64,000 nt of DNA from Candidatus Bathyarchaeota archaeon (GTDB lineage Archaea; Thermoproteota; Bathyarchaeia; Bathyarchaeales; Bathycorpusculaceae): the NCBI GenBank assembly GCA_963833575.1, contig CAWHXY010000001.1:5869-69868 (forward strand). The letters run 5' to 3'. The notes beneath the pieces were generated by a model, which did not search any database, was not told where the DNA came from, and saw nothing but the letters and a program-made list of their open reading frames with translations. Position 1 is the first letter of the stretch. Every line of letters starts with the position of its first letter. Of this stretch, positions 1 to 40,851 are shown one piece after another. Both the position numbers and the translations under genes were made by a program.

Positions 1-235
1 TTTCAAGCATTTCGAAACCAACCAGCACATCAGCTTTTCCAGTTTCAATCAGCGGAGACTCAACCTTATCACCAATTCTTGCATACGCCACAATCGAGCC
101 TCCCCTTTGTGCCATACCATGAATTTCAGCTTTAGCGACATCAAAACCGTCAATCATTGCAGCTTCACAATATATGTCACTTAAAACTACAACCCCTTGC
201 CCTCCAACGCCGCTAAAAACTGTATCAATTTTCAT
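1..235 (-). CDS. iorB: Indolepyruvate:ferredoxin oxidoreductase beta subunit, N-terminal part (runs off window edge)
   Basis: Not in ORF track. Manual translation from ATG at 235 (ATGA overlap with iorA stop): MKIDTVFSGVGGQGVVVLSDIYCEAAMIDGFDVAKAEIHGMAQRGGSIVAYARIG; GVGGQG and HGMAQRGG are IorB/POR-gamma signatures. Confidence 0.92.
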   Translation of the reverse strand, partial: MKIDTVFSGVGGQGVVVLSDIYCEAAMIDGFDVAKAEIHGMAQRGGSIVAYARIGDKVESPLIETGKADVLVGFEMLE

Positions 236-2424
236 TTTTCTTTTCTCCTTATGGCTTCGAAGGGACAGACAGTCTCGCAGACGCCACATCCGTAACAAAG
301 AGTCGTATCTATCTCGGCTCGTTCGCCCGATTGGGAGATGGCTGGGCACCCGAAGGCTTTTACGCACACTCCGCAACCGTTGCATTTTTCCAGGACTTCT
401 CTAGGTTTGCCTCTTTCGATTAATAGTGGACAGGGTTTTTGTGAGATGATGACTGATGGTCCATTATATTCGAGTGCTTGTCTTATTGCCTCGGTTGTGG
501 CTTTAATGTCATATGGATCCACGATGTCGACTTTGTCTATTCCAATGGCTTTTGCCACATCTTGAATTCTGACTATTTTCGCGTCAAAACCCATGGCAGT
601 TTTTCCAGAGCTTGGTGTCGGCTGATGACCGGTCATGGCAACCGTGCTGTTATCCAGGATAATAACGCAGACGTTAGCCTTGTTGTACACTATATTTAGC
701 AATCCGGGCATTCCCGCATGGAAAAAAGTTGAATCCCCAATAACTGCGAAAACCTTCTCTTTTACTCCAGCATGAACCATCCCTGCAGCCTGCGAAATTC
801 CAGCCCCCATACATAAGCAAGATTGAACGGTAGTTACAGGCGGCAAAACACCAAGCGTATAACAACCAATGTCGCCAGTGACAATTTTATCATCTGATTT
901 TCCAGTCAAACTCAATGCGCTTTCAGGGCAAGCGGGAATACATTTCGGATCTCCATTGCAGGTGTCGCAAATCATGACTTTATGTGTGTTCGGATGAAGC
1001 GTGATTGCGCCGTATTTGCAGGTTTCCATGCACCATCTGCAGCCATTGCATTTTTCTTCATCAACCGAAATGGCGCCAGTTTCTGGTGATTGCCTTATCG
1101 CTTTTGGTTCGCAAGCGATTACGCATGGCGCATCTTTGCATGAATTGCAGGTTACTGCAGTATTGAAGGTTTGACCGATTCTAACTGAACGGATTCTAGA
1201 TTTTATGGGATTGAATACTTTTTCTTTCTCAAAAGAGCAAGCGTATTCGCATATGTCGCAGCCTACACATTTTTCGCTGTCGCAATGGACATGCTGGTTA
1301 ACCATGTTTAATGCATAGTAGAAGGCACGATGAGGGCATCCTGGGCAAAGCGCAGGCGGCCTTGGAGGCAAATTCAAAATCGCAGGAATCTCCCCCTTAG
1401 ACGTCAAATGTAAATTTGCAAGAACTTGCCGTACTCTATCGGGCGTAAGCTCGCCAATTTCCTCCAATCCCAGCTCGTTTTTTCCTAAAACATGCAAGCC
1501 TAATCTCTGGAAGTTTTCCTCAAGATAAGGTCTTAGCTCCTCAATTACAATCATTTTTTTGACTTTAAGTGCAAATCTTCTGGCCATTTCTGTTGGAAAA
1601 GGATAAACAAACCCTAACTTTAGCCACGAAAACTTTTTCGTGTCAAGAACTGACCGCGCATAATAGTAACCTACTCCGCTTCCTACTATTCCAATTTCAC
1701 TTGAATTGTCTTCAATAAAATTGAATCTTGAATGGTTGACAAGTGTTTTTGCCTCAGCCATCTTGACCTCTAAAACTCTGTGTTGCCGAATAGCATTTGA
1801 AGGGACCATAACCCATTTTGAACTTTGCTTGTCAAATTTCGGCTTTCGAGTCAGATTTTGCATTCGGCCAAGTTTCACTCTGGCTTTTCCGTGAGCTACT
1901 CTTGTTGTTAAGCGCAGTATGACTGGCAAATGCAGTTTTTCGCTTATCTCAAAGCCTTCTTTCGCCATATCCAAGGCCTCCTGAGGGCTACCAGCATCAA
2001 GCAACGGTAACTTTGAGTGCAGCGCAAAGTATCTCGTATCCTGCTCATTTTGGCTACTATGTAATGCAGGATCATCGCATACCGCAATTACCATTCCGCC
2101 CTCAATTCCCGTGTAAGCTAAAGTCATAGCGGCATCAGCAGCCACGTTTAAGCCAACATGCTTCATAGAAACAATAGAGCGAACACCTGCCATTGAAGCG
2201 CCGGCAGCAACCTCCGCAGCCACAATCTCGTTAATGCTCCATTCAGCATAAATACCGAATTCTCTTGCAAATTCAGCAATGGTTTCCAAAATTTCAGTGG
2301 CCGGAGTTCCAGGATAGGATGAAGCAACTTTCACGCTGGCTTCCAAAGCCCCTCTTGCAACAGCTTCATCGCCGTTTAACAAGGCAAAAGTGGCTGGCTT
2401 ATCTTGTGCAATCTTGGAAGTCAT
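232..2424 (-). CDS. iorA: Indolepyruvate:ferredoxin oxidoreductase alpha subunit with internal 4x[4Fe-4S] ferredoxin insertion
   Basis: GDEAVARGALEA, SYPGTPATEI, MKHVGLNVAAD, SSQNEQDTR, CPGCPHR, GDIGCYTLG, GDSTFFHAG, C-terminal 2x[4Fe-4S]. Start moved to ATG 2424 (MTSKIAQ) because the track start at 2520 overlaps paaK. Confidence 0.93.
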   Translation of the reverse strand: MTSKIAQDKPATFALLNGDEAVARGALEASVKVASSYPGTPATEILETIAEFAREFGIYAEWSINEIVAAEVAAGASMAGVRSIVSMKHVGLNVAADAAMTLAYTGIEGGMVIAVCDDPALHSSQNEQDTRYFALHSKLPLLDAGSPQEALDMAKEGFEISEKLHLPVILRLTTRVAHGKARVKLGRMQNLTRKPKFDKQSSKWVMVPSNAIRQHRVLEVKMAEAKTLVNHSRFNFIEDNSSEIGIVGSGVGYYYARSVLDTKKFSWLKLGFVYPFPTEMARRFALKVKKMIVIEELRPYLEENFQRLGLHVLGKNELGLEEIGELTPDRVRQVLANLHLTSKGEIPAILNLPPRPPALCPGCPHRAFYYALNMVNQHVHCDSEKCVGCDICEYACSFEKEKVFNPIKSRIRSVRIGQTFNTAVTCNSCKDAPCVIACEPKAIRQSPETGAISVDEEKCNGCRWCMETCKYGAITLHPNTHKVMICDTCNGDPKCIPACPESALSLTGKSDDKIVTGDIGCYTLGVLPPVTTVQSCLCMGAGISQAAGMVHAGVKEKVFAVIGDSTFFHAGMPGLLNIVYNKANVCVIILDNSTVAMTGHQPTPSSGKTAMGFDAKIVRIQDVAKAIGIDKVDIVDPYDIKATTEAIRQALEYNGPSVIISQKPCPLLIERGKPREVLEKCNGCGVCVKAFGCPAISQSGERAEIDTTLCYGCGVCETVCPFEAIRRKEK

Positions 2425-2434
2425 GTTGAATCCT

Positions 2435-3751
2435 TTACATTTTGCCTTTGCGCAAATCCAAAACTCTTTTTGCTTTTCCTTCGGTTCTAGGGAGCTCGCC
2501 TGGCTTAACAATTTCCACATCAGCGGATATGCCAGTTACTATGTGAATTCTTTTCTGGATGTCATTCTTCAACGCATTCTTATCCATCTTTGGATCTTTG
2601 GAAGCTTTTTCAGATAATTCGACCTTTACAACAAACGTGTCTAATGCTCCAGGCCTATCAACTACTATGAGATATTGAGTAGCTAGTTCTGAGAAACACA
2701 TTACTGCAAACTCTATTTGTGATGGGAAAACGTTTACTCCACGAATGATCAACATGTCGTCTGATCTTCCGTGCACACGAGCCATTCTGGCATGTGTCCG
2801 TCCGCATTTGCAAGGGGCGGTTTCTATTTTGGAAATATCTCTTGTCCTGTACCTGAGCATGGGTAAGCCTGTTTTACTTAATGTTGTAAAGATAAGTTCA
2901 CCTTCTTCTCCGGTAGGCAAAACTTCGCCAGTGTCTGGGTCAATTGTTTCTACAATAAAATGATCTTCGGCAATATGCAACCCATTTTGCTCAGGACATT
3001 CGATTGAAACGCCTGGACCGCAAAGTTCAGTTAATCCGTAAACATCGAACGCTTTTATTCCAAGGTCATTTTCAATTCTTTCTCTAATCTTGTCTGACCA
3101 AGGTTCTGCCCCAAACATTCCAATTTTAAGTTTGAGGTCTTTTCTTGGGTCAATCTCATCTTGCTCCATAGTTTCTGCTAAGTAAACTGCAAAGCTTGGA
3201 GTACAAGCCAAAATCGTGGCTTCAAGGTCTTTCATAAGTTTTATTTGGCGTTGAGTCATTCCCCCACTCGCAGGAATAATTTTGGTTCCAACTTTTTGAG
3301 CACCGTAATGGAAGCCCATTCCGCCTGTAAATAAGCCGTAGCCATATGCGATGTGTATTACGTCTTGTTGCCTACCGCCTGTGGTGTATATGGATCTTGC
3401 CATTAATTCTTGCCAGACATCCAAATCGCTTCTTGTGTAGGCACCGACAATTGGGTTTCCAGTTGTTCCACTTGAAGCATGAATCTCACATATCTCATCA
3501 GATTTGACAGCGACCATGCCGAACGGGTAATTATCTCGTAAATCAGCTTTAACTGTAAAAGGAATTTTCTTAAGATCATCAAGGGAGCGTATGTCTTCAG
3601 GCTTTAACCCGATGCCGTCAAATTTTTTCTTGTAAAAACCGCTGTTTTCGTAGCAATGTTTGACCTGTTCTTTTAGTTTCTTGAGCTGATGCTTTTTTAT
3701 TTCTTCAGTGGGCATGGTTTCGATTTTTTCGTTCCAGTAATTGCCAGTCAT
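2435..3751 (-). CDS. paaK: Phenylacetate-CoA ligase family protein
   Basis: HASSGTTGNP P-loop, YGYGLFTGGMGFHYG, DVYGLTELCGPG, RYRTRD, GRSDDMLIIRGVNVFPSQIE, EGKAKRV. Confidence 0.93.
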   Translation of the reverse strand: MTGNYWNEKIETMPTEEIKKHQLKKLKEQVKHCYENSGFYKKKFDGIGLKPEDIRSLDDLKKIPFTVKADLRDNYPFGMVAVKSDEICEIHASSGTTGNPIVGAYTRSDLDVWQELMARSIYTTGGRQQDVIHIAYGYGLFTGGMGFHYGAQKVGTKIIPASGGMTQRQIKLMKDLEATILACTPSFAVYLAETMEQDEIDPRKDLKLKIGMFGAEPWSDKIRERIENDLGIKAFDVYGLTELCGPGVSIECPEQNGLHIAEDHFIVETIDPDTGEVLPTGEEGELIFTTLSKTGLPMLRYRTRDISKIETAPCKCGRTHARMARVHGRSDDMLIIRGVNVFPSQIEFAVMCFSELATQYLIVVDRPGALDTFVVKVELSEKASKDPKMDKNALKNDIQKRIHIVTGISADVEIVKPGELPRTEGKAKRVLDLRKGKM

Positions 3752-3769: not shown

Positions 3770-4474
3770 CTAAAGGCCTAGATACACTTCTTTTATGTGA
3801 CTATTAGATAAAAGTTCCCTACTTTTTCCTTCTAAAACGATTTTGCCTTCCTCTAAAACGTAACCTCTATCTGCCACATTTAATGAGTCGTGAATGTTCT
3901 GTTCCACAAGTACAACTGTTACGCCTTCATCGTTGATTGTACGTATAGTATCTAACACTTTTTCAACGATAATTGGAGCCAAACCCAATGAAGGCTCATC
4001 GAGAATCAGCATTTGAGGGTTGCACATTAAACTTCGACAAATAACAAGCATTTGCTGCTCGCCGCCGCTAAGCGTTTGAGCTAACGCTTTTTCCTTCTTT
4101 CTTAGCACAGGAAAAATCTCGTAAACATTTTCCTTAGATTCCTTAATCTTCGCCTTATCCTTTATTGTATAGGCACCCAACATCAAGTTTTCCTCAATAG
4201 TCATGCGGGGAAAAATTTCTCTGCCTTCAGGAATCATTGTTAAGCCTTTTTTGACTATTTCATAAGTTGGCAGTTTCTCGATGTTTTCGCCTTTAAACTT
4301 GATTGTTCCATTTTTAGGATGCAGAAAACCCATGATAGTTTTTACGATGGTCGTTTTTCCTGCTCCATTAGGGCCAATGATGCTTAGAATTTCTTTCTCT
4401 TCCACTTTAAAAGTTACGTCGCGGAGTATTTGCACCATGCCATACGCCGACGAAACATTCTGGACTTCTAGCAC
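3770..4474 (-). CDS. livF: Branched-chain amino acid ABC transporter ATP-binding protein (LivF type)
   Basis: GPNGAGKTT, PEGREIFPRMT, LSGGEQQML, LDEPSLGLAP, LVEQN; GTG start. Confidence 0.92.
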   Translation of the reverse strand: MLEVQNVSSAYGMVQILRDVTFKVEEKEILSIIGPNGAGKTTIVKTIMGFLHPKNGTIKFKGENIEKLPTYEIVKKGLTMIPEGREIFPRMTIEENLMLGAYTIKDKAKIKESKENVYEIFPVLRKKEKALAQTLSGGEQQMLVICRSLMCNPQMLILDEPSLGLAPIIVEKVLDTIRTINDEGVTVVLVEQNIHDSLNVADRGYVLEEGKIVLEGKSRELLSNSHIKEVYLGL

Positions 4475-4476
4475 GT

Positions 4477-5217
4477 TTACTCCTCCTCATTAAACGTGAA
4501 CTTTTTGCCCAAGTAAACCTTCACAACGTTTTCATCATTACAAACTTGTTTGGGTGTTCCTTCGCAGATTTTTTTGCCATGTTGCAATACGATTACTCGG
4601 TCACATAAACCCATTATAACCCTCATAACGTGCTCAACAATTAGCACGCTTACCCCCTGCTTGTTAATTAGTTTGATAAGTGCAATGGCTTCATCTGATT
4701 CAGCTGGAGTTAAACCCGCAAGCAACTCGTCTAAGAGAAGCAATTTAGGACTAGTTGCTAAAGCCTTAGCAAGCTGTATACGTCGTAACTCAACCACGTT
4801 CAAGTTTTTTGCAGGAACATCAAATTTTTCTTTACCCAAACCAACAAAACCCAAAAGTTCCTGAGCCCTTGGCAAGGCACCAATTTTATCTTTTGATTTT
4901 TTCTCGTTGAAAAGCACACTTGTCAAAACATTTTCGATAGCTGTCATTTCAGGAAAAGACTGAACCGTCTGCGACGTCTTCGATATTCCTTTGGCGCAAA
5001 TCTTGTATGGCGGTAATTTGGTGATGTCTTCATTTAGAAAAACGATTTGGCCTGAATCTGGATTGTAAACGCCGCTAATAAGGTTCAAAAGTGTCGATTT
5101 TCCTGAGCCGTTTGGTCCTACAAGCCCCGTTATTTCGTTGCTGTTTACCGTTAAATCCACTTTTTTTAATGCCTGAAGCCCTCCAAACTGCTTTGAAACT
5201 TCGGTGCACTTTAGCAA
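4477..5217 (-). CDS. livG: Branched-chain amino acid ABC transporter ATP-binding protein (LivG type)
   Basis: FGGLQAL, GPNGSGKST, LLLLDE, IVEHVM, C-terminal VVKVYLG; TTG start. Confidence 0.9.
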   Translation of the reverse strand: MLKCTEVSKQFGGLQALKKVDLTVNSNEITGLVGPNGSGKSTLLNLISGVYNPDSGQIVFLNEDITKLPPYKICAKGISKTSQTVQSFPEMTAIENVLTSVLFNEKKSKDKIGALPRAQELLGFVGLGKEKFDVPAKNLNVVELRRIQLAKALATSPKLLLLDELLAGLTPAESDEAIALIKLINKQGVSVLIVEHVMRVIMGLCDRVIVLQHGKKICEGTPKQVCNDENVVKVYLGKKFTFNEEE

Positions 5218-6030: not shown

Positions 6031-6996
6031 TCAGAAGGTGGATATATACTGACGTTGGCCAGGCCAAGCAGCAGGGAGCTGCCTCAACCTTGATTCCGTC
6101 CTTTTAATATTTGATATTTTTGCTATCTGGTCACTAATGTCCATCATATTTTTACAATCTTTAACTAAAGCAACAACTTCCAGATCGAAGGTTCCACTTA
6201 TTTTTACCAGATACGTTACCCCCGGCATTTCCGATAATTTGTTGACAATTTCGTTTACTACGCTTTGATCTGCGAGTCCTATGCTAATTTCCAAAATACC
6301 TTGAAAGCCCAACTCTAAAGGGTTAACTTGAATTGAAACTTTGATAAAATTGTTCTCTTTGAGCCTTTCATATCTTCTCGCTATAGTAGCTGTTGTTGTC
6401 CCAATTTGCTGAGCAATTTTTCTGAAAGATAAGCGACCGTTTTCAGTAAGTGCATCAATTATTTGCATGTCCATTTCATCAATTTTTAGGGTTGGTTTTT
6501 TGACTTTTTCTTTAATGTAGTTCTCGACGTTTTGAGTTTCAGAAGGATTTGACAAAATATTTTCTGGTATGTTCCTAACGTCTGTCCAAATCTGTGTTTC
6601 AAACTCATTTATCTTGGTTTGTTTACAGATGATTTGTTTAACACGATCCAGATCACTTAGGGAATGTAATCGATAGATGGCTGCAATATTGTGTTTTGAA
6701 TTATAGTAGCGACATGTCCCAATATCAGTAATCTTGCGTAGTCGATTTAGAACATAATCAGCATCTTGCGATTCTGTATTTATCAGAATCAAAGCAAGTC
6801 CGCTGTAGCCTAGTTTTTGAAAATTAAATTGAATGGTTGCGCCTACAATTATGCCTGCTTTTTTCAACTCTTTGTAATGTGTCCAGATGACATCTTTTGA
6901 CACATGGCACTGTGCAGCGATGGAGGTAAAGTTTCTTCGCCCATCATTGAGAAGTGCTCTAAGAATTTTGACGTCTATGTCTCCGAGGTTTTTCAT
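6031..6996 (-). CDS. Lrp/AsnC family transcriptional regulator with two tandem HTH+RAM units
   Basis: DIDVKILRALLNDGRRNFTSIA and DEMDMQIIDALTENGRLSFRKIAQQIG, each followed by a ligand-binding-like domain. Confidence 0.88.
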   Translation of the reverse strand: MKNLGDIDVKILRALLNDGRRNFTSIAAQCHVSKDVIWTHYKELKKAGIIVGATIQFNFQKLGYSGLALILINTESQDADYVLNRLRKITDIGTCRYYNSKHNIAAIYRLHSLSDLDRVKQIICKQTKINEFETQIWTDVRNIPENILSNPSETQNVENYIKEKVKKPTLKIDEMDMQIIDALTENGRLSFRKIAQQIGTTTATIARRYERLKENNFIKVSIQVNPLELGFQGILEISIGLADQSVVNEIVNKLSEMPGVTYLVKISGTFDLEVVALVKDCKNMMDISDQIAKISNIKRTESRLRQLPAAWPGQRQYISTF

Positions 6997-7407: not shown

Positions 7408-10014
7408 ATGAAAACTGTAAAACAAAAAACAGAAGCTATTGCAATTGCTATATTTTTAATGTTTTCAATGACAGCTTCAATGATATTACTACCAAATGTT
7501 AGTGCACATACTCCGCCAATCCAGGTTCCTACATACGCGTTCATTAATGTTGCGCCCGAACCTATCGGAGTCGGCCAGCAAGCTACTGTTGCTTTCTGGC
7601 TTGACAAAGTCCCAATTGGAGCAGAAGGACTCTACGGCGACAGATGGCACGGGTTTACAGTAACAGTTACTAAGCCTGACGGAACCACTGAGGTGCTAGG
7701 ACCTTTTAATTCGGATGTTAACGGCGGCGCTTCAACAAGATATACACCTAACCAAGTTGGCACTTACACATTCTTGTTCAAATACCCTGGGCAAGTAGCA
7801 CAAAATGCAAATCCATATCCCTATACTCCTGGGTTTGTTCCACTAGGACTTGACTATGTAAATGACACTTTTCTGGCAAGTAGTGCAACCACGACACTAA
7901 CAGTGCAGCAACAGCCAGTAATAACGGCTTATGGACAAGCTCCGCTTCCAACAGCATACTGGACTCGCCCCATAAATTCAATGAATAGAGAATGGTCTGT
8001 AATTGCCGGCAACTGGATTGGGCTTGGAGTGACAACATTTGGCGCAACTGGGCTCCTGGCAAATACAGGCAACTATGACCCATATACTACAGCTCCCAAC
8101 AGTGCTCACATAATGTGGACTCAACCATTGGCTTTCGGGGGTCAGATCGGAGGCGAATTCGGTAGCAGTGAAACTGGTCTTTACTCAACCGGGACAGCAT
8201 ACGAAACCAAGTTCGGAGCAGTTATACTTAACGGGATTCTTTACTACACAGAATATCCTGGCGCTGGAAACAACCCGACAGGCTTGAAAGCTGTCGACAT
8301 AAGAACCGGAAATACAGTATGGGAAAAACCCATCACTACCCCACTGAGATGCGGCATGATATTGAACTTCATAACAGGAGATCAATACGGCGGACACGCT
8401 TACTTGTTCTGTGCCCCTGCAGCGATCGGATTCATTCCTTATCCACCTGGAAGCAATTGGGAAATGTATGATGCAATGACAGGCGCTTGGATACTCGACA
8501 TCAATAATACAAATGCTGGTACACTTGTAGAAGGTCCAAATGGCGAAATACTAAGCTACACTGTTGCAAATGGCATGCTAACTATGTGGAATTCAACTAA
8601 ATGTATCTCAGCTGGATCAACAAAGAATCTATTTTATACGGTTTATAGCTCTTCGGAAATTTGGCGGCCTCCACAAGGAGCAACTATTGATTGGAGTGCA
8701 GGATACCAGTGGAGTGCGCCACTGGCCACAAGCATTAGCGGCGTACCCATAATTCCAGGCTTAGCCATTTCCAAAGTTGATAGCGGCGTAGTTCTTACGA
8801 CAGCAGTGCCGGGAGGTATATTTACTGGACCACCAGGTGGATCCCAATTAGGTTATGAAATTGATGCAGGCTATAGTGCGACCACAGGTCAGCTGCTTTG
8901 GGGTCCGGTTAATCGGACTTTAACGCCATTCACAACTGTTGCTTTGCAGGCTGGTGATGGAAAATATGCTGTTTACACGCAACAACTTGAGTCTTGGACT
9001 GGTTATGATATTACAACTGGGCAGAAACTTTGGACAACTCCCGCTGAAAACAGTTCTTGGGGCTATTATGATTTCTCAGGCGATGGTGCTTTTGGCTATG
9101 GCAGCTTTTACACGTGGGGCTTAGGTGGAACAATATATGCCTATAATTCGACAACTGGAGCGCTAGAGTGGACTTGGAATACTGGAAACTCCGGAGTAGA
9201 TACTCCATATGGCTCATGGCCTTTGGGAACATGGGCGACGCACTACATTCTTGCAGACAACAAATTTTATGTTAGGGCTGGTCATGACTACACTCCGCCA
9301 GTGTTCAAAGGGGCACAGCTTTACTGCATTAACGCTACGGATGGAAAAGAAATCTGGGATTCATTAAGTTTTGACATAGAAGGCTCACCAGCTATAGCTG
9401 ATGGCTATATGGTTTGGTTTAACGGCTATGACAATCAAATATACTCTTATGGCAAAGGCCCCAGTGCTCTAACTGTCACTGCACCACAGGCTGGCGTAGA
9501 AGTTGGCAAATCAATAGATATTAGCGGTACGGTCTTGGATATCTCGGCAGGTACGCAGCAAGATGCAGTGAAAGCTAACTATCCGAACGGTGTTCCAGCG
9601 ATTTCAGACGCAAGCCAAAGTGCATGGATGAACTACTTATACGAACAGCAGCCAATGCCGACTAATGCAACAGGAGTTCCTGTATCAATCGATGTCATAG
9701 ATTCTAACGGCAACTACCGAAACATAGGTACAACAATCTCTGACATGAGCGGTACTTTCAGATTTAGCTGGAAACCTGATATTGCAGGCAACTACACTGT
9801 GATCGCTACTTTCCACGGTTCTGATTCATATTATCCATCATATGCGGAATCTGGGTTTGTCGCTGATTCAGCACCAACAACAACCACTGCTGTTCCTACA
9901 TCCGCACCCGCCTCTGTTGTTGATACTTACTTTGCTCCTGCCGTCGTTGGCATAATATTGACTATCGTCATAGTTGGCGCTGCAATAATACTCCTACAAA
10001 GAAAACGACCATAA
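7408..10014 (+). CDS. Secreted, C-terminally anchored PQQ-like beta-propeller repeat surface protein (paralog 1)
   Basis: Signal peptide ending VSA-H, repeated G..LW / G..IW propeller motifs, SPAIADG, C-terminal hydrophobic helix plus RKRP; paralogous to 38224 and 41102 ORFs. Confidence 0.85.
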   Translation: MKTVKQKTEAIAIAIFLMFSMTASMILLPNVSAHTPPIQVPTYAFINVAPEPIGVGQQATVAFWLDKVPIGAEGLYGDRWHGFTVTVTKPDGTTEVLGPFNSDVNGGASTRYTPNQVGTYTFLFKYPGQVAQNANPYPYTPGFVPLGLDYVNDTFLASSATTTLTVQQQPVITAYGQAPLPTAYWTRPINSMNREWSVIAGNWIGLGVTTFGATGLLANTGNYDPYTTAPNSAHIMWTQPLAFGGQIGGEFGSSETGLYSTGTAYETKFGAVILNGILYYTEYPGAGNNPTGLKAVDIRTGNTVWEKPITTPLRCGMILNFITGDQYGGHAYLFCAPAAIGFIPYPPGSNWEMYDAMTGAWILDINNTNAGTLVEGPNGEILSYTVANGMLTMWNSTKCISAGSTKNLFYTVYSSSEIWRPPQGATIDWSAGYQWSAPLATSISGVPIIPGLAISKVDSGVVLTTAVPGGIFTGPPGGSQLGYEIDAGYSATTGQLLWGPVNRTLTPFTTVALQAGDGKYAVYTQQLESWTGYDITTGQKLWTTPAENSSWGYYDFSGDGAFGYGSFYTWGLGGTIYAYNSTTGALEWTWNTGNSGVDTPYGSWPLGTWATHYILADNKFYVRAGHDYTPPVFKGAQLYCINATDGKEIWDSLSFDIEGSPAIADGYMVWFNGYDNQIYSYGKGPSALTVTAPQAGVEVGKSIDISGTVLDISAGTQQDAVKANYPNGVPAISDASQSAWMNYLYEQQPMPTNATGVPVSIDVIDSNGNYRNIGTTISDMSGTFRFSWKPDIAGNYTVIATFHGSDSYYPSYAESGFVADSAPTTTTAVPTSAPASVVDTYFAPAVVGIILTIVIVGAAIILLQRKRP

Positions 10015-10922: not shown

Positions 10923-13769
10923 ATGGGAACATTAAATCTTGACAAGATTTTCGACCCTCAAAGCGTAGCTATAGTCGGAGCCAGCGACGCGGAAGGATCA
11001 GTTGGGTACGCAATTGTTAAAAATTTTACCCAAATGGGTTACACCGGCAAAGTTTACTTTGTAAACATCCGAAAGCCTGAGATTTTGGGAGTTAAAACTT
11101 ACAAATCAGTTGACGAAATTCCAGAGCCCGTTGATTTAGTCATGATCGCCACGCCTGCAAAAACCGTTCCTGACGTTATGGAGGAATGTGGACGAGCAAA
11201 AGTTAAAGGTGTTATCATCGTATCTGCAGGTTTCAAAGAAACTGGTCCTGCAGGAAAAGCTTTGGAAGACAAAATCCTTGAAAGCGCCAAAAAATATGGA
11301 ATCCGAGTTATTGGTCCAAACTGCATCGGCATGATCCGACCCAGAGTAAACCTTAATGCCACTTTTTTAGACAAAATGCCTAAACCAGGCAATGTTGCTT
11401 TTCTATCTCAAAGCGGCGCTTTAGGCTCTGCAATTCTTGACTGGGCAATCCACGAAAACATCGGCTTTAGCAATTTTGTCTCAGTCGGCTCTATGATTGA
11501 CGTAGACTTTGGTGATCTGATTGATTATTTTGGTTCTGATCCAAAAACTAAAAGCATATTGATGTATGTTGAAGGCATAACTCAAGCACGCAAATTTATG
11601 AGTGCAGCAAGGCATTTTGCAAGAACCAAACCAATAATCGTAGTTAAATCAGGAAAATTCGCAGAAAGCGCAAAAGCAGCAGCTTCTCACACAGGTTCGC
11701 TTTCAGGCGAAGATGACATTTACGACGCAGCCTTCAAACGCGCCGGAATCGTTCGAGTCAACGAAATCGCTGATCTGTTTAATTCAGCTGAAGTTTTAGG
11801 AACACAGCCCCTACCTAAGGGTCCTAGGCTTGCCATAATAACTAATGCAGGTGGACCTGGAGTAATGGCAACTGACGCTTTGATCGGTCAAAACGGTAAA
11901 TTGGCTAAGTTAAGCCAAAAATCACTTGATGCACTTAACGCTGTCCTGCCTCCTTTCTGGAGTCACGGAAACCCAATTGATGTCTTAGGTGATGCAAAAT
12001 CTGAACGCTACAAAACTGCGTTAGACGTTTGCCTCAACGACGAAAACATCGATGGGATTCTAATTATTTTTACTCAACAAGCAGTTTCAGAATCGGTTGA
12101 AATAGCCAAAAACATTGTTGAACTTGTACGCAACAAATCTTACCAAAACAAAACAATCCTGACCTCGTTTATGGGATATGGCGCAGTGTTAGAAGCAAAC
12201 AGCATTCTGAACGCAAATAACATTCCAACCTATTCAACTCCTGAACAAGCAATCAAGACATACATGTACATGTATGAATACCAACGCAACATCGATCTTC
12301 TATACGAAACCCCTGAAGAGTTGCCAGTTGACGCTTCACCACCCAAACGCCCAATCATGGTAATATTAAGAAACGCAGCGTTCGAGGGTCGAGAAGTCTT
12401 AACTGAAGATGAAGCTAAAAAAATACTCAAATATTATAATTTCCCAATAGTAAGGACTGCAGCTGCAAACAACGTGGAAGAAGCAGTTACATTTGCCCAA
12501 GAAATGGGCTTCCCAGTCGTACTAAAAATTCTGTCACCCCAAATCGTCCATAAAACTGACGCAGGCGGAGTAATCCTAAACATTAACTCACCAAACGAAG
12601 TCCGCGAAGCCTTCGAGGTTCTAATACAAAGGGCCACAGCGTACAATCCAACCGCCCAAATAATCGGCGTCACGGTTCAACCCATGATCGAAAAGAAAGG
12701 GCAAGAAATAATTATCGGTGGAAAAACCGACCCAGTTTTCGGACCCGTAATACTGTTCGGTATGGGCGGCGTAGGAGTAGAACTCTTCAAAGATTATTCA
12801 ATTGGTCTTCCGCCATTGAATACAACACTTATTCATCGGATGATGGAAGAAACTAAAATTTACCGCTTACTCAAAGGGTACAGAGGTTCACCTGCAGTTG
12901 ACCTTAAAAAACTCGACGAAACTCTGCTGCTTTTCTCTCAATTACTTGTTGATTTCCCGCAAATAAAAGAAATTGATATTAACCCAATGTTAATCAGCGA
13001 AAAAGAAGCATGCATACTTGATGCTCGCATTGTAATTGACAAAGATGCGGTTTGCCATAAATTTGATCCACACGAGCACATGGTCATTAGCCCTTATCCA
13101 AAAAAAGACGAAATTCTGTGGCAACTGAAAAACGGTCAAGAAGTCATGCTTCGCCCCATAAAACCAGAAGATGAACCTATGTGGCTGGAAATGTTCCAAA
13201 GCTTCTCCGAAGAATCCATACGATACCGGTTCTTCCAAATGCTCAAAGATACCCCGCATGAAGTCCGTGTCCGCTACTGCAACGTCGATTATGACCGAGA
13301 AGTCGCCATTGTTTCCGAAATGGATGAAAATGGTAAAAGGAAAATACTTGGTGTAGCTCGCGTTAGCCTCGAATCTGATGGAAGAAGCAGTGAAATGGCC
13401 TTCATTGTAAGCGACTACTGGCAGGGTTTAGGTTTAGGCACTAAAATGGTTGATTACGTGCTTGATCTCGCAAAAGAAAAAGGCGTTGAAAACGTCTACG
13501 CAATTATGCTACCTGACAACTACAGAGCTTTGAGCCTGACAAAGAAAATGGGTTTCACAATTGAATACTTAAGCGATGGCACTGTCAAAGCATCACTTAA
13601 CCTGAAAAACGAAGACGTTGATTCAAGATGTCCAGTTATAAGCCCGGTCATTGGTCCAGTTATAACGTTGCCTGAACCTCCACGTGAGCAACCTGAGCAG
13701 ATAATTACAGCGGTACGAGAAGAAAAGAAAAAGGAATCTAAAGCACAGCGAGAGCTAACACCGGCGTAA
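10923..13769 (+). CDS. Acetate-CoA ligase (ADP-forming) alpha+beta fusion with C-terminal GNAT domain
   Basis: CoA-binding SVAIVGAS, IGPNCIG, SQSGA, ASHTGSL (phospho-His), ATP-grasp HKTDAGGV, EIDINP, then GNAT with WQGLGLGT. Confidence 0.92.
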   Translation: MGTLNLDKIFDPQSVAIVGASDAEGSVGYAIVKNFTQMGYTGKVYFVNIRKPEILGVKTYKSVDEIPEPVDLVMIATPAKTVPDVMEECGRAKVKGVIIVSAGFKETGPAGKALEDKILESAKKYGIRVIGPNCIGMIRPRVNLNATFLDKMPKPGNVAFLSQSGALGSAILDWAIHENIGFSNFVSVGSMIDVDFGDLIDYFGSDPKTKSILMYVEGITQARKFMSAARHFARTKPIIVVKSGKFAESAKAAASHTGSLSGEDDIYDAAFKRAGIVRVNEIADLFNSAEVLGTQPLPKGPRLAIITNAGGPGVMATDALIGQNGKLAKLSQKSLDALNAVLPPFWSHGNPIDVLGDAKSERYKTALDVCLNDENIDGILIIFTQQAVSESVEIAKNIVELVRNKSYQNKTILTSFMGYGAVLEANSILNANNIPTYSTPEQAIKTYMYMYEYQRNIDLLYETPEELPVDASPPKRPIMVILRNAAFEGREVLTEDEAKKILKYYNFPIVRTAAANNVEEAVTFAQEMGFPVVLKILSPQIVHKTDAGGVILNINSPNEVREAFEVLIQRATAYNPTAQIIGVTVQPMIEKKGQEIIIGGKTDPVFGPVILFGMGGVGVELFKDYSIGLPPLNTTLIHRMMEETKIYRLLKGYRGSPAVDLKKLDETLLLFSQLLVDFPQIKEIDINPMLISEKEACILDARIVIDKDAVCHKFDPHEHMVISPYPKKDEILWQLKNGQEVMLRPIKPEDEPMWLEMFQSFSEESIRYRFFQMLKDTPHEVRVRYCNVDYDREVAIVSEMDENGKRKILGVARVSLESDGRSSEMAFIVSDYWQGLGLGTKMVDYVLDLAKEKGVENVYAIMLPDNYRALSLTKKMGFTIEYLSDGTVKASLNLKNEDVDSRCPVISPVIGPVITLPEPPREQPEQIITAVREEKKKESKAQRELTPA

Positions 13770-35548: not shown

Positions 35549-37462
35549 ATGTTTGCTTATGCAGGAAAAATTTTACATGTTAACCTCACTACGGGAGAAA
35601 CAAAAACTGAGCCATTATCAGAACAAATGGCTAAAGATTACATCGGCGGTATAGGTTTAGGCATTCGCCTATTGTTTGACAACTCAAAACCAGGGACAGA
35701 CGCCTACGACCCTGAAAACCCGATAATTTACTTAACTGGTCCACTCAGCGGCACCATGGGACCAACAGGCGGCAACAGCTACGCTGTTGTTTCCAAATCA
35801 CCAGCAACCGGCGGCATAGGCAATGCTGAAGCCCACGGCTTCTTTGGTCCAGATCTGAAACGTGCAGGCTACGACGCAGTCATAATCACAGGTAAAGCTC
35901 CCAAACTATCCTACCTTTGGCTTGACGACGACAAAGTCGAAATTCGAGATGCCGCATATCTCAAAAACGCAACCGTTAAAGAAACCGATGACAAAATTCG
36001 AGATGAACTCGGAGATTTCTACATTCGTGTTTCAGCAATTGGTGAAGCTGGCGAGAAACTTTGTAGGTTTGCCGCCATCATAAATGACGAGTTCCGCGCT
36101 ATCGGAAGGAGCGGCATGGGCGGAGTCATGGGCAGCAAAAACCTAAAAGCAGTTGCCGTCCGTGGAACACATGACGTTAACGTAGCTAACCTGGAAGGAT
36201 TCAAAGAATTTATCAAAATGATTCATGAACGCATGAAGGGTCCATCAACCAAAAAATACAAAACCTTGGGCACTCCGGAAAACGTTTTGGTCCTTAATTC
36301 ACTTTCAGCTTTGGCAACAAGAAACTGGACGAACGCAACTTTTGAAGGGGCAGACAAAGTCAGCGGAGAATACTTCAACGAGCATTATGTAAAGAAGATC
36401 GTCGGCTGCGCCACTTGCGGTATGCGTTGTGACCACATTGGTGTTGTTCCTGAAGGTCCATACAAAGGTTCAACCTCAAGGCTTGAGTTCGAGTGCCTTT
36501 GGAGTATGGGACCACTGTGTGGCGTTGACCGGCTTGATGCAATTATCGAAGCCATGCGAATAGTTAACGAGTACGGCATGGACGGCATATCCATAGGTGT
36601 TGTTGTTGCATTCGCAATGGATATTTATGAGCATGGTATAATTACGAAGGAACAAACAGACGGAATAGATCTCAAATTCGGAAATGCCGAAGCACTTATA
36701 GCCATGATTCACAAAATCGGAAAACGCGAAGGCTGGTTGGGAAACATCCTTGCGGAAGGTGTTGCAAAAGCGGCTGAATTAATCGGCGGAGACGCTTACA
36801 AGTACGCTTGCCACATTAAAGGCTTGGAACTTCCAGGCTACGACTTACGCACACTAAAGACTGCTGCTCTTGGCTTTAGTGTTTCATTCAGAGGCGCTTG
36901 CCACTTACGCAATGGTGCTTATTCACCTGATGTTAAAGGCAAAGTTAATCGGTTCAAAATTGAGAAGGGCAGAGGCAAAATGATTACTGAAGAAAGCTAC
37001 ATGTACAATATTATTGACTCGCTTATCGTATGCAAATTCAGTAGAGGCACATATTATGACGGCTGGAAAGATTTGACTAACTATTACACTCTTGCAACTG
37101 GCATCCCAATCACCCCAGAAGAAATGATTAAAGACGGCGACAGAATCGAAAACCTCGCAAGACTTTTCAACATCAGAGAAGGCAAAGGCACACGCAAATA
37201 CGACGATGTTCCCTACAAAATAAAGAATTTCCCAGTTCCCGATGAAGGACCAGCCAAAGGTGTCTGCGTAAACGACGAAGAAATGGCTGTAGGTTTAGAT
37301 GACTATTACGCTTCAAGAGGCTGGACAGTGGATGGAATACCAACCGTTGAACGTTTGCAACAGCTAGGCCTTGGCGACTTAGCATACATAGCCCAAGATG
37401 CAATTAAGGCGGCTCAATCAGCAAAGCCTCAAGCGGTAGCCGCAACTGTGGGAGGTAACTAG
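35549..37462 (+). CDS. aor: Tungsten-dependent aldehyde:ferredoxin oxidoreductase
   Basis: KILHVNLT, SKSPATG, GRSGMGGVMGSKNLKAVAV, CATCGMRC, GMDGISIG, KGLELPGYD, GACHLR, YYASRGW. Confidence 0.93.
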   Translation: MFAYAGKILHVNLTTGETKTEPLSEQMAKDYIGGIGLGIRLLFDNSKPGTDAYDPENPIIYLTGPLSGTMGPTGGNSYAVVSKSPATGGIGNAEAHGFFGPDLKRAGYDAVIITGKAPKLSYLWLDDDKVEIRDAAYLKNATVKETDDKIRDELGDFYIRVSAIGEAGEKLCRFAAIINDEFRAIGRSGMGGVMGSKNLKAVAVRGTHDVNVANLEGFKEFIKMIHERMKGPSTKKYKTLGTPENVLVLNSLSALATRNWTNATFEGADKVSGEYFNEHYVKKIVGCATCGMRCDHIGVVPEGPYKGSTSRLEFECLWSMGPLCGVDRLDAIIEAMRIVNEYGMDGISIGVVVAFAMDIYEHGIITKEQTDGIDLKFGNAEALIAMIHKIGKREGWLGNILAEGVAKAAELIGGDAYKYACHIKGLELPGYDLRTLKTAALGFSVSFRGACHLRNGAYSPDVKGKVNRFKIEKGRGKMITEESYMYNIIDSLIVCKFSRGTYYDGWKDLTNYYTLATGIPITPEEMIKDGDRIENLARLFNIREGKGTRKYDDVPYKIKNFPVPDEGPAKGVCVNDEEMAVGLDDYYASRGWTVDGIPTVERLQQLGLGDLAYIAQDAIKAAQSAKPQAVAATVGGN

Positions 37463-37463
37463 T

Positions 37464-37973
37464 ATGGTTCGACCGCAAGACCGAAAATTCGTGACCGCAG
37501 ACCCTGACAAATGCATCGGCTGTTGCGTCTGCGAATACGCTTGTAGCATGGTTAACGAAAAAACCTTCAATCCTACTAAATCACGAATACGTGCAATGCG
37601 CATGGGTCCACTAGTAAACTTGGCAATAACATGCCGACACTGCGAAGAACCTGCATGCGTAGCAGCTTGCCCAAGAGATGCACTCACCCAAGAAGAAAAC
37701 AGCGGAATTATCCGTGTTGATGAGAACGCCTGCAACGGCTGCGGATGGTGCATTAGTGCATGCCAATTTGGCGCTATGAACATGCACCCAGAAAAGAAAA
37801 TCGTATTCACATGCAATAGCTGCACAGACAACGAAACAAAAGAGCCGCAATGCGTCAAATGGTGCCCAGAAGAAGCATTAACATATGTCAGCGCAGAAAC
37901 ATTGGCACAAAAGTACAGGCAAAAAGCTGTCAAGAACCTATTCCAAACCGCAGAAACCAACAAACAAAAATAG
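37464..37973 (+). CDS. 4x[4Fe-4S] ferredoxin (CooF/DmsB-like), AOR partner
   Basis: CIGCCVCEYAC, CRHCEEPACVAACP, CNGCGWCISAC, CNSC...CVKWCP. Confidence 0.9.
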   Translation: MVRPQDRKFVTADPDKCIGCCVCEYACSMVNEKTFNPTKSRIRAMRMGPLVNLAITCRHCEEPACVAACPRDALTQEENSGIIRVDENACNGCGWCISACQFGAMNMHPEKKIVFTCNSCTDNETKEPQCVKWCPEEALTYVSAETLAQKYRQKAVKNLFQTAETNKQK

Positions 37974-38223: not shown

Positions 38224-40851
38224 TTGAAAATATTAGAAAGTAAAACTATAGCTATTTTGATTGCAGTATTCATAACACTTTCTATGGCAGGCTCAATGAT
38301 ACTTTTGCCAAGTGCAAATGCGCATTCACCAGCATGGCAAGTTCCGACTTATTCTTTCTGCAGTGTTTCACCTAACCCCATAGGCATCGGGCAAACAGTC
38401 AACGTGAACTTCTGGGTTAACATACCGCCGCCAACAGCAAACCAACAATTTGGTGACAGATGGCAAAATATGACCGTTGTAGTTACACACCCTGATGGAA
38501 CCACTGAAAAACTTGGGCCATTTACCTCAGACGATACTGGAGGATCACATACTACATATACACCAAATTCACTGGGTAATTATACTTTCCAAATGATCTT
38601 TGGCGGGCAAACATTAGCAGGTGCCAATCCATCTTTAACTGGCACAACTAGCGTATTTGTCGGTGACTATTTCCAACCGAGCCAAAGCAACGTATTCAAG
38701 CTTACTGTGCAGCAGCAAGCAATAACCTACGCAGGTGTATCTCCACTTCCCACAAACTACTGGACTCGCCCAATATACGCAGAGAACACTAACTGGTACT
38801 CAATTGCTGGAAACTGGCTTGGTCTTGGCATATCAACGTTTGCTAACACTGGAATGTACAATGCAAGCGCAAACTACAACGCCTATACTAATGCACCAAA
38901 CACGGCTCACATTCTATGGACTAAGCCTGCAGCGTGGGGAGGTATTATCGGTGGAGAATTCGGAGGTTCTGAAATAAGCAACTATTATTCAACGTCACAG
39001 TATGAGCCAAAATTCGCACCAATAATAATGCAAGGCGTCCTCTATTACACTCTGTATCCCGGAGCTTCCAGTTACCCCGAAGGCTGGGTTGCTGTAGACT
39101 TACACACAGGACAAACTCTATGGACAAAAAATACTACTGAGATCTTAAGATGCGGTCAGCTACTCCAAATGGTCACCCCTAACCAGTACGGAGCCCTTGC
39201 ATACTTATGGAGTAATCCGGTTGGAAACCTTACAGCTGGCTCCAGTCGCCCAGGTGTATTGGGGTCTTTAGAGATGTGGGATGCCATGACCGGGAACTAC
39301 ATACTTACTATCACTGGCGTTCAAACAATGACACTTACAGAGGACAACCAAGGTGACTTGATAGGCTACTACACTAACAATACTGGAACCAGTCAATCGC
39401 TGACTATGTGGAACTCAACACTATGCATCAATCTAAATATACCCAGCAGCAACAACAACGGAGTTCCTCTTGCAGACAATTGGTATTGGCGACCTGGAAC
39501 AGGTGCACAAATGCCATTTGCAAAAGGAATACAATGGTCAGTCCCGTTGCCAAATAACATTTCAGGCGTACCCCTAGTCTCTCCTTCAAGTGGACTCTTA
39601 GGTCTAAGCGTTTCCGCAATCAACAGCAACACAGTACTATTAGTAGAAGCATTAAGTGGCATTACAAATGCTGGGTACCAAGCAGGATGGCAAATAGAAA
39701 CAGGCTACAACGCGGCAACAGGTGCACAGTTATGGGCGCCAATCAACCGAACCGAAACACCCTTCTCAATCATATACACAGGCAGCGTTTGGGCTGGAAG
39801 CGGAGCATACGTAGAATTAACCGAATCAACTCTGTCAATCGCAGGCTATAGCTTGACTACAGGTCAACAGCTATGGGGACCAATAGCACTTCCAAACGTT
39901 AGTCCATTCAGTTCACTGGGTGCAAACGCTGTCGTTGCAAATGGCTCAATCTACATTTGGGGCTACGGAGGAGACGTTTACTCTTTCAATATCGTTACCG
40001 GAGCATTAAACTGGCAATATCATACTCCAAGCGGCGGTTATGAGTCTCCCTACGGAGTTGAACCAATATGGACATTCACTGTAGGCACAGTCGCTGACGG
40101 TAAACTCTTTGTTCCGGAAGGACATATGTACAGTCCACCGCTATTCCACAATGCACAACAACTAGCACTCAACACCACTGACGGGAATCTTGTTTGGAGT
40201 ATTGATGCTTTTGATGTTACAAGTGCACCAGCCATTTCCGACGGAGTTATGACCACTTTAAACGCCTATGACAACCAAATATACGCTTACGGCAAAGGCG
40301 CTACCAAAGTTACTGTCACAGCCCCCGGTGTCGGAATCACAACTTCAACACCAGTAACAATCAGCGGTTCAGTAACTGATATCTCTGCAGGCGCAACACA
40401 ACAAGCAGTAGCAGCAAATTTCCCCAACGGACTTCCAGCAGTCTCTGACACAAGCATGACGAATTGGATGGAATATGTTTACATGCAACAACCATTCCCA
40501 GCAAACACAACTGGTGTACCCATTTCAATCGACGTAATCGACTCCAATGGAAATTATAGAAACATCGGTAGCACAACAAGCGATGCAAGCGGCAAGTTCT
40601 CTTTCACTTGGACACCTGATATTGCAGGTCACTATACTGTAGTCGCCAGTTTCCATGGTTCAGAATCGTATTATTCATCCTATGATGAAGCATTCTTCAC
40701 CGCAAGTGCATCACCAACCGCATCTCCAATCGCGACATCAGAGCCTGCATCAATGGCTGATACATACTTAATTCCATCAGTCGTGGCCATAATCGTCGTC
40801 ATCATAATAGTAGGCGCGGTACTAGCATTGATGATAAGGAAACAACCATAG
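38224..40851 (+). CDS. PQQ-like beta-propeller surface protein (paralog 2)
   Basis: TTG start after aggaga; signal peptide; conserved blocks shared with 7408 and 41102; TM anchor plus RKQP. Confidence 0.85.
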   Translation: MKILESKTIAILIAVFITLSMAGSMILLPSANAHSPAWQVPTYSFCSVSPNPIGIGQTVNVNFWVNIPPPTANQQFGDRWQNMTVVVTHPDGTTEKLGPFTSDDTGGSHTTYTPNSLGNYTFQMIFGGQTLAGANPSLTGTTSVFVGDYFQPSQSNVFKLTVQQQAITYAGVSPLPTNYWTRPIYAENTNWYSIAGNWLGLGISTFANTGMYNASANYNAYTNAPNTAHILWTKPAAWGGIIGGEFGGSEISNYYSTSQYEPKFAPIIMQGVLYYTLYPGASSYPEGWVAVDLHTGQTLWTKNTTEILRCGQLLQMVTPNQYGALAYLWSNPVGNLTAGSSRPGVLGSLEMWDAMTGNYILTITGVQTMTLTEDNQGDLIGYYTNNTGTSQSLTMWNSTLCINLNIPSSNNNGVPLADNWYWRPGTGAQMPFAKGIQWSVPLPNNISGVPLVSPSSGLLGLSVSAINSNTVLLVEALSGITNAGYQAGWQIETGYNAATGAQLWAPINRTETPFSIIYTGSVWAGSGAYVELTESTLSIAGYSLTTGQQLWGPIALPNVSPFSSLGANAVVANGSIYIWGYGGDVYSFNIVTGALNWQYHTPSGGYESPYGVEPIWTFTVGTVADGKLFVPEGHMYSPPLFHNAQQLALNTTDGNLVWSIDAFDVTSAPAISDGVMTTLNAYDNQIYAYGKGATKVTVTAPGVGITTSTPVTISGSVTDISAGATQQAVAANFPNGLPAVSDTSMTNWMEYVYMQQPFPANTTGVPISIDVIDSNGNYRNIGSTTSDASGKFSFTWTPDIAGHYTVVASFHGSESYYSSYDEAFFTASASPTASPIATSEPASMADTYLIPSVVAIIVVIIIVGAVLALMIRKQP

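Follow-up and report, generated by a model that had tools for sequence, protein, structure and literature searches.

A complete four-cluster polyferredoxin module nested in the indolepyruvate oxidoreductase alpha subunit of a Bathyarchaeia clade

We have analysed a stretch of 64,000 nucleotides from a Candidatus Bathyarchaeota archaeon (assembly GCA_963833575.1, contig CAWHXY010000001.1, positions 5,869 to 69,868; hereafter the window). Near its start lies iorA, the gene for the alpha subunit (IorA) of indolepyruvate oxidoreductase (IOR; window 232–2424, minus strand, 730 aa). In the IorA chain, a complete 4x[4Fe-4S] double-ferredoxin core is inserted in-frame between ligands 2 and 3 of the [4Fe-4S] cluster proximal to thiamine pyrophosphate (TPP). 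The nested module is of the WorS/AorA type, i.e., that of the small subunits of tungsten aldehyde oxidoreductases (AORs). Overall, we regard this IorA as a conserved, clade-restricted and undescribed variant of IOR, whose origin is well supported and whose mechanism we infer. With a probability of roughly 0.6, the module acts as a built-in polyferredoxin, either as a second electron branch or as an extension of the existing chain.

The longest minus-strand open reading frame (ORF) at this place spans window 232–2520 without interruption and encodes 762 aa. The homologs measure 730 aa. The true start of iorA is the ATG at 2422–2424, which has an AGGA in front and follows at 10 nt from where the paaK-like gene upstream stops. 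With the 762-aa ORF as the query, the NCBIfam model TIGR03336 (IOR_alpha) scores 703.1 bits (cut-off 650.9), and the match is split in two stretches, the first of which covers residues 47–409 and profile positions 4–376. The Pfam matches on the same ORF are POR_N (PF01855, 1.8e-19), TPP_enzyme_C (PF02775, 7.9e-24), the dicluster domain Fer4_11 at residues 455–536, and Fer4 plus Fer4_7 near the C-terminus at residues 712–758. In terms of the OFORs (2-oxoacid:ferredoxin oxidoreductases) as a family, the protein consists of domains I–II, a TPP (pyrophosphate, PP) domain VI that is broken by the insert, and a C-terminal 2x[4Fe-4S] domain V.

The cysteines of the host, numbered here and below in the 730-aa protein, are all in place. 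The motif CPGCPHR (window 1327–1347, minus strand), which is invariant in the proteins with insert and conserved in insert-less IorA, holds ligands 1 and 2 of the proximal cluster (C360 and C363). According to the alignments, GDIGC (862–876, minus strand), directly past the insert, gives ligand 3 (C521). The invariant C665 in SQKPCP (430–432, minus strand) is the presumed ligand 4, assigned by analogy with OFOR beta subunits. For CPGC and GDIGC, we assume the same roles as in cluster A of pyruvate:ferredoxin oxidoreductase and other OFORs. Domain V (235–399, minus strand) is a canonical 2x[4Fe-4S] ferredoxin domain with C681/684/687/693 and C710/713/716/720. On sequence grounds, the product is called IorA here, and it appears to keep all canonical parts, i.e., the TPP motif and the cluster proximal to TPP as well as domain V and the IorB partner. 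This iorA is the only one in the genome, which has no other IOR.

The insert occupies residues ~377–510 (window ~895–1296, minus strand), with boundaries placed by the junction alignment to within 5 aa on either side. In the alignment with 12 insert-less IorA of Bathyarchaeia, it stands out as a clean block of ~128 aa between ...CPGCPHRAFYYALN and (K)IVTGDIGC, at a position where the insert-less proteins have 10–13 residues. Because it lies between CPGC and GDIGC, it is nested within a cluster-binding loop. An earlier interpretation of this DNA made from its letters only (the sequence-only reading) had reported a ferredoxin in-frame in IorA at 900–1293, with 16 Cys in four motifs. The junction alignment and the split TIGR03336 match confirm this block, and the motifs are as it described: C386/389/392/396, C426/429/434/438, C459/462/465/469 and C486/489/495/499. 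To these we can add a 17th Cys, C381, which lies five residues ahead of motif I, is invariant in the 116 aligned insert-bearing sequences used for our invariance counts, and is without counterpart in standalone ferredoxin relatives. On the host side, C536 (in SCLCMG) is invariant in insert-bearing IorA, while L, I, S or V is found at this position in the insert-less proteins. C381 (region of window 1294–1296) and C536 (~829–831) may make a contact between insert and host, or else a disulfide or an additional metal site.

All the predicted cluster ligands are conserved. In the 116 sequences, the 16 cluster Cys of the insert, the four of the proximal cluster and the eight of domain V are invariant. 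The pairwise identity is 0.76 for the insert, 0.79 for domain V and 0.82 for the catalytic domains. We have also calculated dN/dS values by the NG86 method, which are approximate as dS is near saturation: 0.07 for the insert, 0.06 for domains I–II plus VI, and 0.10 for domain V. Purifying selection on the insert matches in strength that acting on the catalytic domains.

The insertion recurs widely within one lineage. A segment spanning both junctions (residues 390–560) retrieves more than 110 database clusters of proteins with 726–732 aa at 76–97% identity, and 42 loci in ~41 GTDB species genomes, each with the same junctions. All 42 loci belong to metagenome-assembled genomes (MAGs) of Bathyarchaeota/Bathyarchaeia that were produced by several independent studies, and some of the loci lie on contigs of 0.5–2.9 Mb; SPRUCE, bog, palsa, MFD and 'Bathy6-' are among the isolate names. 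When 301 Bathyarchaeia species genomes were scanned, 27 showed full-length insert-bearing matches (64–88% identity). Six genera in the family of the window, its own genus among them, include such carriers, as does a single genus from another family in the same order. The insertion does recur in Bathyarchaeia, a point that the sequence-only reading had proposed to check. All the other IorA in these genomes have ~630 aa and no more than 49% identity, with the match ending at residue ~405–410. Outside these two families, no junction-spanning match was found in 401 Thermoproteota genomes.

Both forms of IorA occur together in 2 Bathyarchaeia genomes. In one of them (G253), an insert-bearing and an insert-less iorAB (L073/L074, 39% identity) lie 11 kb apart on one contig (C2) and thus coexist as paralogs; the conserved operon described below surrounds the insert-bearing copy only. 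We have also observed that the MAG MFD00709.bin.2.110 has two contigs (L024 and L028), each with an insert-bearing livGF-paaK-iorA-iorB operon, which may reflect either a genuine duplication or redundant strains within the bin.

As for the family of the insert, we have compared residues 409–548 with the PDB. The best relatives are small subunits of AORs: AorA of Aromatoleum aromaticum (8C0Z_C, E 3.2e-25), an Fe-S-cluster-containing subunit (9MQX_E, E 5e-25), and WOR5-S (6X6U_B / 6X1O_B, E 5.1e-22), the last of which we take to be from Pyrococcus furiosus. Next in the ranking are HycB3/4 from HDCR (a hydrogen-dependent CO2 reductase), HycB of the formate hydrogenlyase (FHL), and NrfC. In our reading, 9MQX_E is the WorS subunit from the WorABCSL structure (PMC12318220). 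The insert is thus placed in the same family as the WorS/AorA subunits (8C0Z chain C, 9MQX chain E, 6X6U/6X1O chain B; PMC10413684, PMC12318220) and has the same four Cys motifs. Unlike them, it is not a free subunit, as both its ends are continuous with IorA, and there is no AOR gene in the operon.

The same genome encodes five standalone paralogs of the insert. One of them, the ORF at window 37464–37973 (plus strand), encodes a WorS-type partner polyferredoxin of 169 aa with a Pfam Fer4_11 match, and begins 1 nt past an AOR-family (WorL-type) tungsten oxidoreductase gene (35549–37462, plus strand; NF007354, 5.4e-62), which is one of three AOR genes in the genome. Its identity to the insert is 45–47% (45% over 136 aa in the direct alignment, E = 2e-44). 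On the other hand, the ferredoxin at C6:311061-311588, downstream of another AOR, is 56% identical to the insert. The sequence-only reading had named the window ORF as a paralog; the homology to an AOR partner ferredoxin is well borne out by this alignment, the PDB relatives and the tree below, but the window ORF is not the closest relative. The remaining three paralogs are C4:869759-870382 (51%, without AOR neighbour), C4:191475-192047 (36%, upstream of an AOR) and C4:1146130-1146660 (35%), the neighbours of which we read as glutamate-synthase-like genes. Each of the three AORs is adjoined by its own partner ferredoxin. In other genomes, the nearest standalone relatives show 57–60% identity and are orthologs of the C6 ferredoxin, each directly after an AOR; their MAG names (JZ, HHBFW) presumably refer to hot-spring sources.

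In the tree of 178 ferredoxins, the IorA inserts form one clade (SH-aLRT 98). Its sister is a 16-member group that holds AOR-partner ferredoxins of Bathyarchaeia, including the window ORF, and the enclosing 73-member clade has a support of 99. In the host tree, which was made without the insert columns, the insert-bearing IorA also form one clade (SH-aLRT 100) with one change of state. The stem of this clade is long (1.0 substitutions per site), and the host differs from insert-less Bathyarchaeia IorA by this long branch as well as by the low identity given above. As both trees give single clades, the simplest history is one WorS-type insertion into iorA, after which the host diverged markedly. 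That is, the insert appears to be derived from the coding sequence of a Bathyarchaeia AOR small subunit, and the trees indicate a single insertion event in the ancestor of a clade spanning two families of one order.

We have also searched 1.84 billion representative proteins exhaustively with HMMER, using the insert as the query, and the matches are almost solely ferredoxins of 150–200 aa. In this library, the scan gave no full-length IorA but only two fragments (P0123 and P0127), and the insert-bearing IorA are probably hidden behind other representatives of the 50% clusters. Since the library hides them, the claim of a single gain cannot cover distant OFOR lineages. The scan has also found two proteins (P0191 and P0198) in which an AOR catalytic subunit and a WorS-type polyferredoxin are fused in a single chain, and both orders (AOR-Fd and Fd-AOR, with Fd for ferredoxin) occur.

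The gene context points to aromatic compounds. Downstream, the start of iorB overlaps the iorA stop as ATGA; its 5' part lies at window 1–235 (minus strand), and the gene, which encodes 193 aa in the genome, runs past the window start. The best matches of this iorB candidate are IorB models, though below their cut-offs (NF005322, 192.7 vs 237; TIGR03334, 169.3 vs 205.8). Directly upstream of iorA is a gene for a PaaK-like phenylacetate-CoA ligase (2435–3751, minus strand; TIGR02155, 575.6 bits, cut-off 646), followed in the same operon by livF and livG for ABC-transporter ATPases (3770–5217, minus strand), while livK, livH, livM and paaI lie past iorB, outside the window. Only two arrangements are found around insert-bearing iorA, namely livG-livF-paaK-iorA-iorB-livK-livH-livM(-paaI) and paaK-iorA-iorB-paaI, and a paaK-like gene adjoins every one of them. 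Upstream of livG and in the same orientation, window 6031–6996 (minus strand) encodes a 321-aa protein with two AsnC-type helix-turn-helix domains and an Lrp/AsnC ligand-binding domain, which is likely an amino-acid-responsive regulator of the cassette. Judged by its gene content, the operon is predicted to be a cassette of uptake, CoA activation and IOR for aromatic acids or amino acids.

In our preferred interpretation, i.e., a built-in polyferredoxin, each alpha subunit would bind seven [4Fe-4S] clusters, not three. The module would be either an extra conduit on the PP domain or an extension of the path from TPP through the proximal cluster to domain V. A dedicated partner could then exchange electrons with the arylpyruvate/arylacetyl-CoA couple, in place of soluble ferredoxin or alongside it. 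The operon, with its ABC importer, PaaK CoA ligase, IorAB and PaaI thioesterase, would set the enzyme in aryl-acid or aromatic amino-acid metabolism. Given the neighbouring paaK and importer genes, we lean slightly towards a direction in which electrons are fed in and arylacetyl-CoA is reductively carboxylated, which would amount to aryl-acid assimilation. In either form, the insert probably alters the electron exchange of the enzyme.

Comparison with known systems gives this interpretation some context. Like canonical IorAB (TIGR03336/TIGR03334), the present enzyme has POR_N, TPP_enzyme_C, the four proximal Cys, the 2x[4Fe-4S] domain, a translationally coupled iorB candidate and a paaK neighbour, but it differs by the ~130-aa four-cluster module and by seven predicted clusters per alpha subunit versus three. 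The pyruvate oxidoreductase (POR) of Methanococcus maripaludis, also of the OFOR family, is anabolic and works by reductive carboxylation. According to PMC13768988, the canonical IorAB enzyme is that of Pyrococcus furiosus (Mai & Adams 1994, cited there), and the polyferredoxins PorE/PorF accompany the M. maripaludis POR. That case resembles ours as an OFOR-family enzyme with an extra polyferredoxin, but PorE/PorF are separate genes whose products are loosely bound, and they are likened here by role, not by homology. Another case is PadI of the NADH-dependent phenylglyoxylate dehydrogenase (NF045766), where a four-cluster module also serves a 2-oxoacid oxidoreductase; the insert matches PadI residues 6–137 with E = 1.2e-22. 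PadI, however, is a separate subunit that has the module at its N-terminus, fused to a GltD-like NAD(P)H flavoprotein, whereas IorA lacks any flavoprotein part and carries the module within its TPP domain. A four-cluster ferredoxin module from the superfamily of the insert also occurs in AegA/YgfT-type proteins. As precedents for a polyferredoxin that links an enzyme to its partner, WorS serves WorL and the N-terminal module of PadI serves phenylglyoxylate dehydrogenase, and PorE/PorF presumably do the same for POR.

Several observations weigh against the built-in polyferredoxin. The insert leaves the chain after a stretch of ~13 residues past CPGC and rejoins it just before the strand ending in GDIGC. 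This stretch presumably is a helix leading away from CPGC, with the insertion loop at its far end, and the nearness of the insert to the proximal cluster is seen in the sequence only. The AlphaFold2 model of the 730-aa IorA (from the shallow 116-sequence alignment, 67–97% identity) has a mean pLDDT of 64.5 and a pTM of 0.53, with the insert and junctions below 50, and appears too poor for placing the insert relative to the proximal cluster; a sequence search found no IOR structure in the PDB. The sequence-only reading had put the insert next to the TPP-proximal cluster, which stands insofar as it lies between two of the ligands along the chain, but the model does not carry the claim of spatial nearness. 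Moreover, the retained domain V leaves the normal ferredoxin exit intact, and the conserved iorAB operon contains no candidate gene for a redox partner. With respect to the favoured direction, the genome has genes for aroC (chorismate synthase) and prephenate dehydratase, so that de novo aromatic amino-acid synthesis exists, and it also has three genes of the ADP-forming acyl-CoA synthetase (ACD) type, so that an oxidative, ATP-yielding use is possible. As a guide to the reaction direction, such pathway genes proved uninformative, since the genome has aroC and prephenate dehydratase as well as ACD-type genes. The three AORs, each with its own ferredoxin, give no decision on the direction either.

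Among the other explanations, the one that survives best, though it is unlikely, is that the insert plays mainly a structural or oligomerising role, or acts as a redox buffer. In this case its clusters would be bound without a productive path to an outside partner, and it might stabilise the enzyme or its assembly, for example as a bridge between the two alpha subunits. Such polyferredoxin subunits do organise assemblies in AOR and HDCR (PMC10413684), the canonical exit through domain V is kept, and the clade-specific invariant C381 and C536 hint at a special contact between insert and host. However, the AorA filament needs the C-terminal extension of AorA for its formation (PMC10413684), and this C-terminal helix is missing in the insert: the aligned region stops at residue 166 of the 192 in AorA, and from there the chain runs into GDIGC of IorA. 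The 16 invariant ligands and the dN/dS of 0.07 are also what is expected of a working electron-transfer module.

It is somewhat more doubtful that the insert serves as a docking module for an AOR catalytic subunit. According to this explanation, the WorL-binding face has been kept and IorAB recruits a tungsten AOR subunit, with a shared Fe-S wire for aldehyde oxidation (or acid reduction) and the arylpyruvate/arylacetyl-CoA conversion. The family of the insert and its sister position to AOR-adjacent ferredoxins speak for it, and the fusions of AOR and ferredoxin (WorS-WorL) show that the module normally contacts WorL. Moreover, 2-oxoacid oxidoreductases in Pyrococcus yield aldehydes as side products. 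In AorA, the clusters FS1 and FS2 connect to AorB (PMC10413684), and at one locus (L041) an AOR-ferredoxin pair lies beside the iorAB operon. But the conserved operon has no AOR gene at 41 of the 42 loci, the insert is only 45–60% identical to WorS proteins, both its termini are tied into IorA, and the genome has no orphan WorL, since its three AORs each have an adjacent ferredoxin. The idea of an orphan AOR as support for docking is rejected for the same reason.

A more far-reaching proposal, to which we give a low probability, is that the module has retained those faces by which AOR small subunits bind their partners, so that IorAB plugs into a WorL/WorS assembly or another WorS-recognising complex. 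In such a hetero-enzyme Fe-S wire, electrons of very low potential, supplied by aldehyde oxidation or a hydrogenase, would directly drive the reductive carboxylation of arylacetyl-CoA without soluble ferredoxin. Finally, an assembly chimera or misjoined contig that put a ferredoxin gene inside iorA, a concern raised by the sequence-only reading, has nothing more than the unusual architecture for it and is practically negligible: it is refuted by the recurrence of the same junctions across independent assemblies (at all 42 loci), and the more than 110 database clusters with the same make-up, the 27 carrier genomes, the continuous reading frame and the conserved coding constraint agree with this.

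The window holds some other genes worth recording. At 10923–13769 (plus strand), there is a 948-aa Pat-like protein with an ADP-forming acyl-CoA synthetase core (CoA_binding_2, Succ_CoA_lig, ATP-grasp_5) and a C-terminal GNAT domain. By eye, each of three paralogs of ~870 aa (7408–10014, 38224–40851 and 41102–43762, plus strand) has a signal-like segment at its N-terminus and a membrane anchor at its C-terminus; the first of them has weak Pfam matches to PQQ_2/BamB-like and Big_3_5 domains. They may represent a surface protein family of this lineage.

With regard to novelty, the insertion is described in no open-access paper that we have found, including works on OFOR diversity. The sequence-only reading had allowed that a wide occurrence in already described IorA would remove the novelty; the insertion is indeed widespread among database proteins of one order, but these carry automatic names only, such as 'thiamine pyrophosphate-dependent enzyme' or 'IOR alpha subunit'.

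OFOR enzymes are three-cluster enzymes, and their direction, i.e., oxidative decarboxylation or CO2 fixation, is set by the redox partner. Here, a whole four-cluster subunit of an unrelated enzyme, the tungsten AOR, is nested between two ligands of the catalytic cluster and is under strong selection. It can therefore be taken as a test case for how added Fe-S wiring affects partner choice and reaction bias, for how a complete cofactor-binding domain can be placed inside a cluster-binding loop without destroying the loop, and for the reuse of redox modules in general. Considering that an abundant Bathyarchaeia lineage of peat and soil has this enzyme as its only IOR, and that it lies in an operon predicted for aromatic-acid uptake and CoA activation, the finding bears on how these archaea handle lignin- or peptide-derived aromatic carbon. 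If IorAB did plug into WorL/WorS or a kindred complex, peat Bathyarchaeia would have a hard-wired machine for aryl-acid assimilation.

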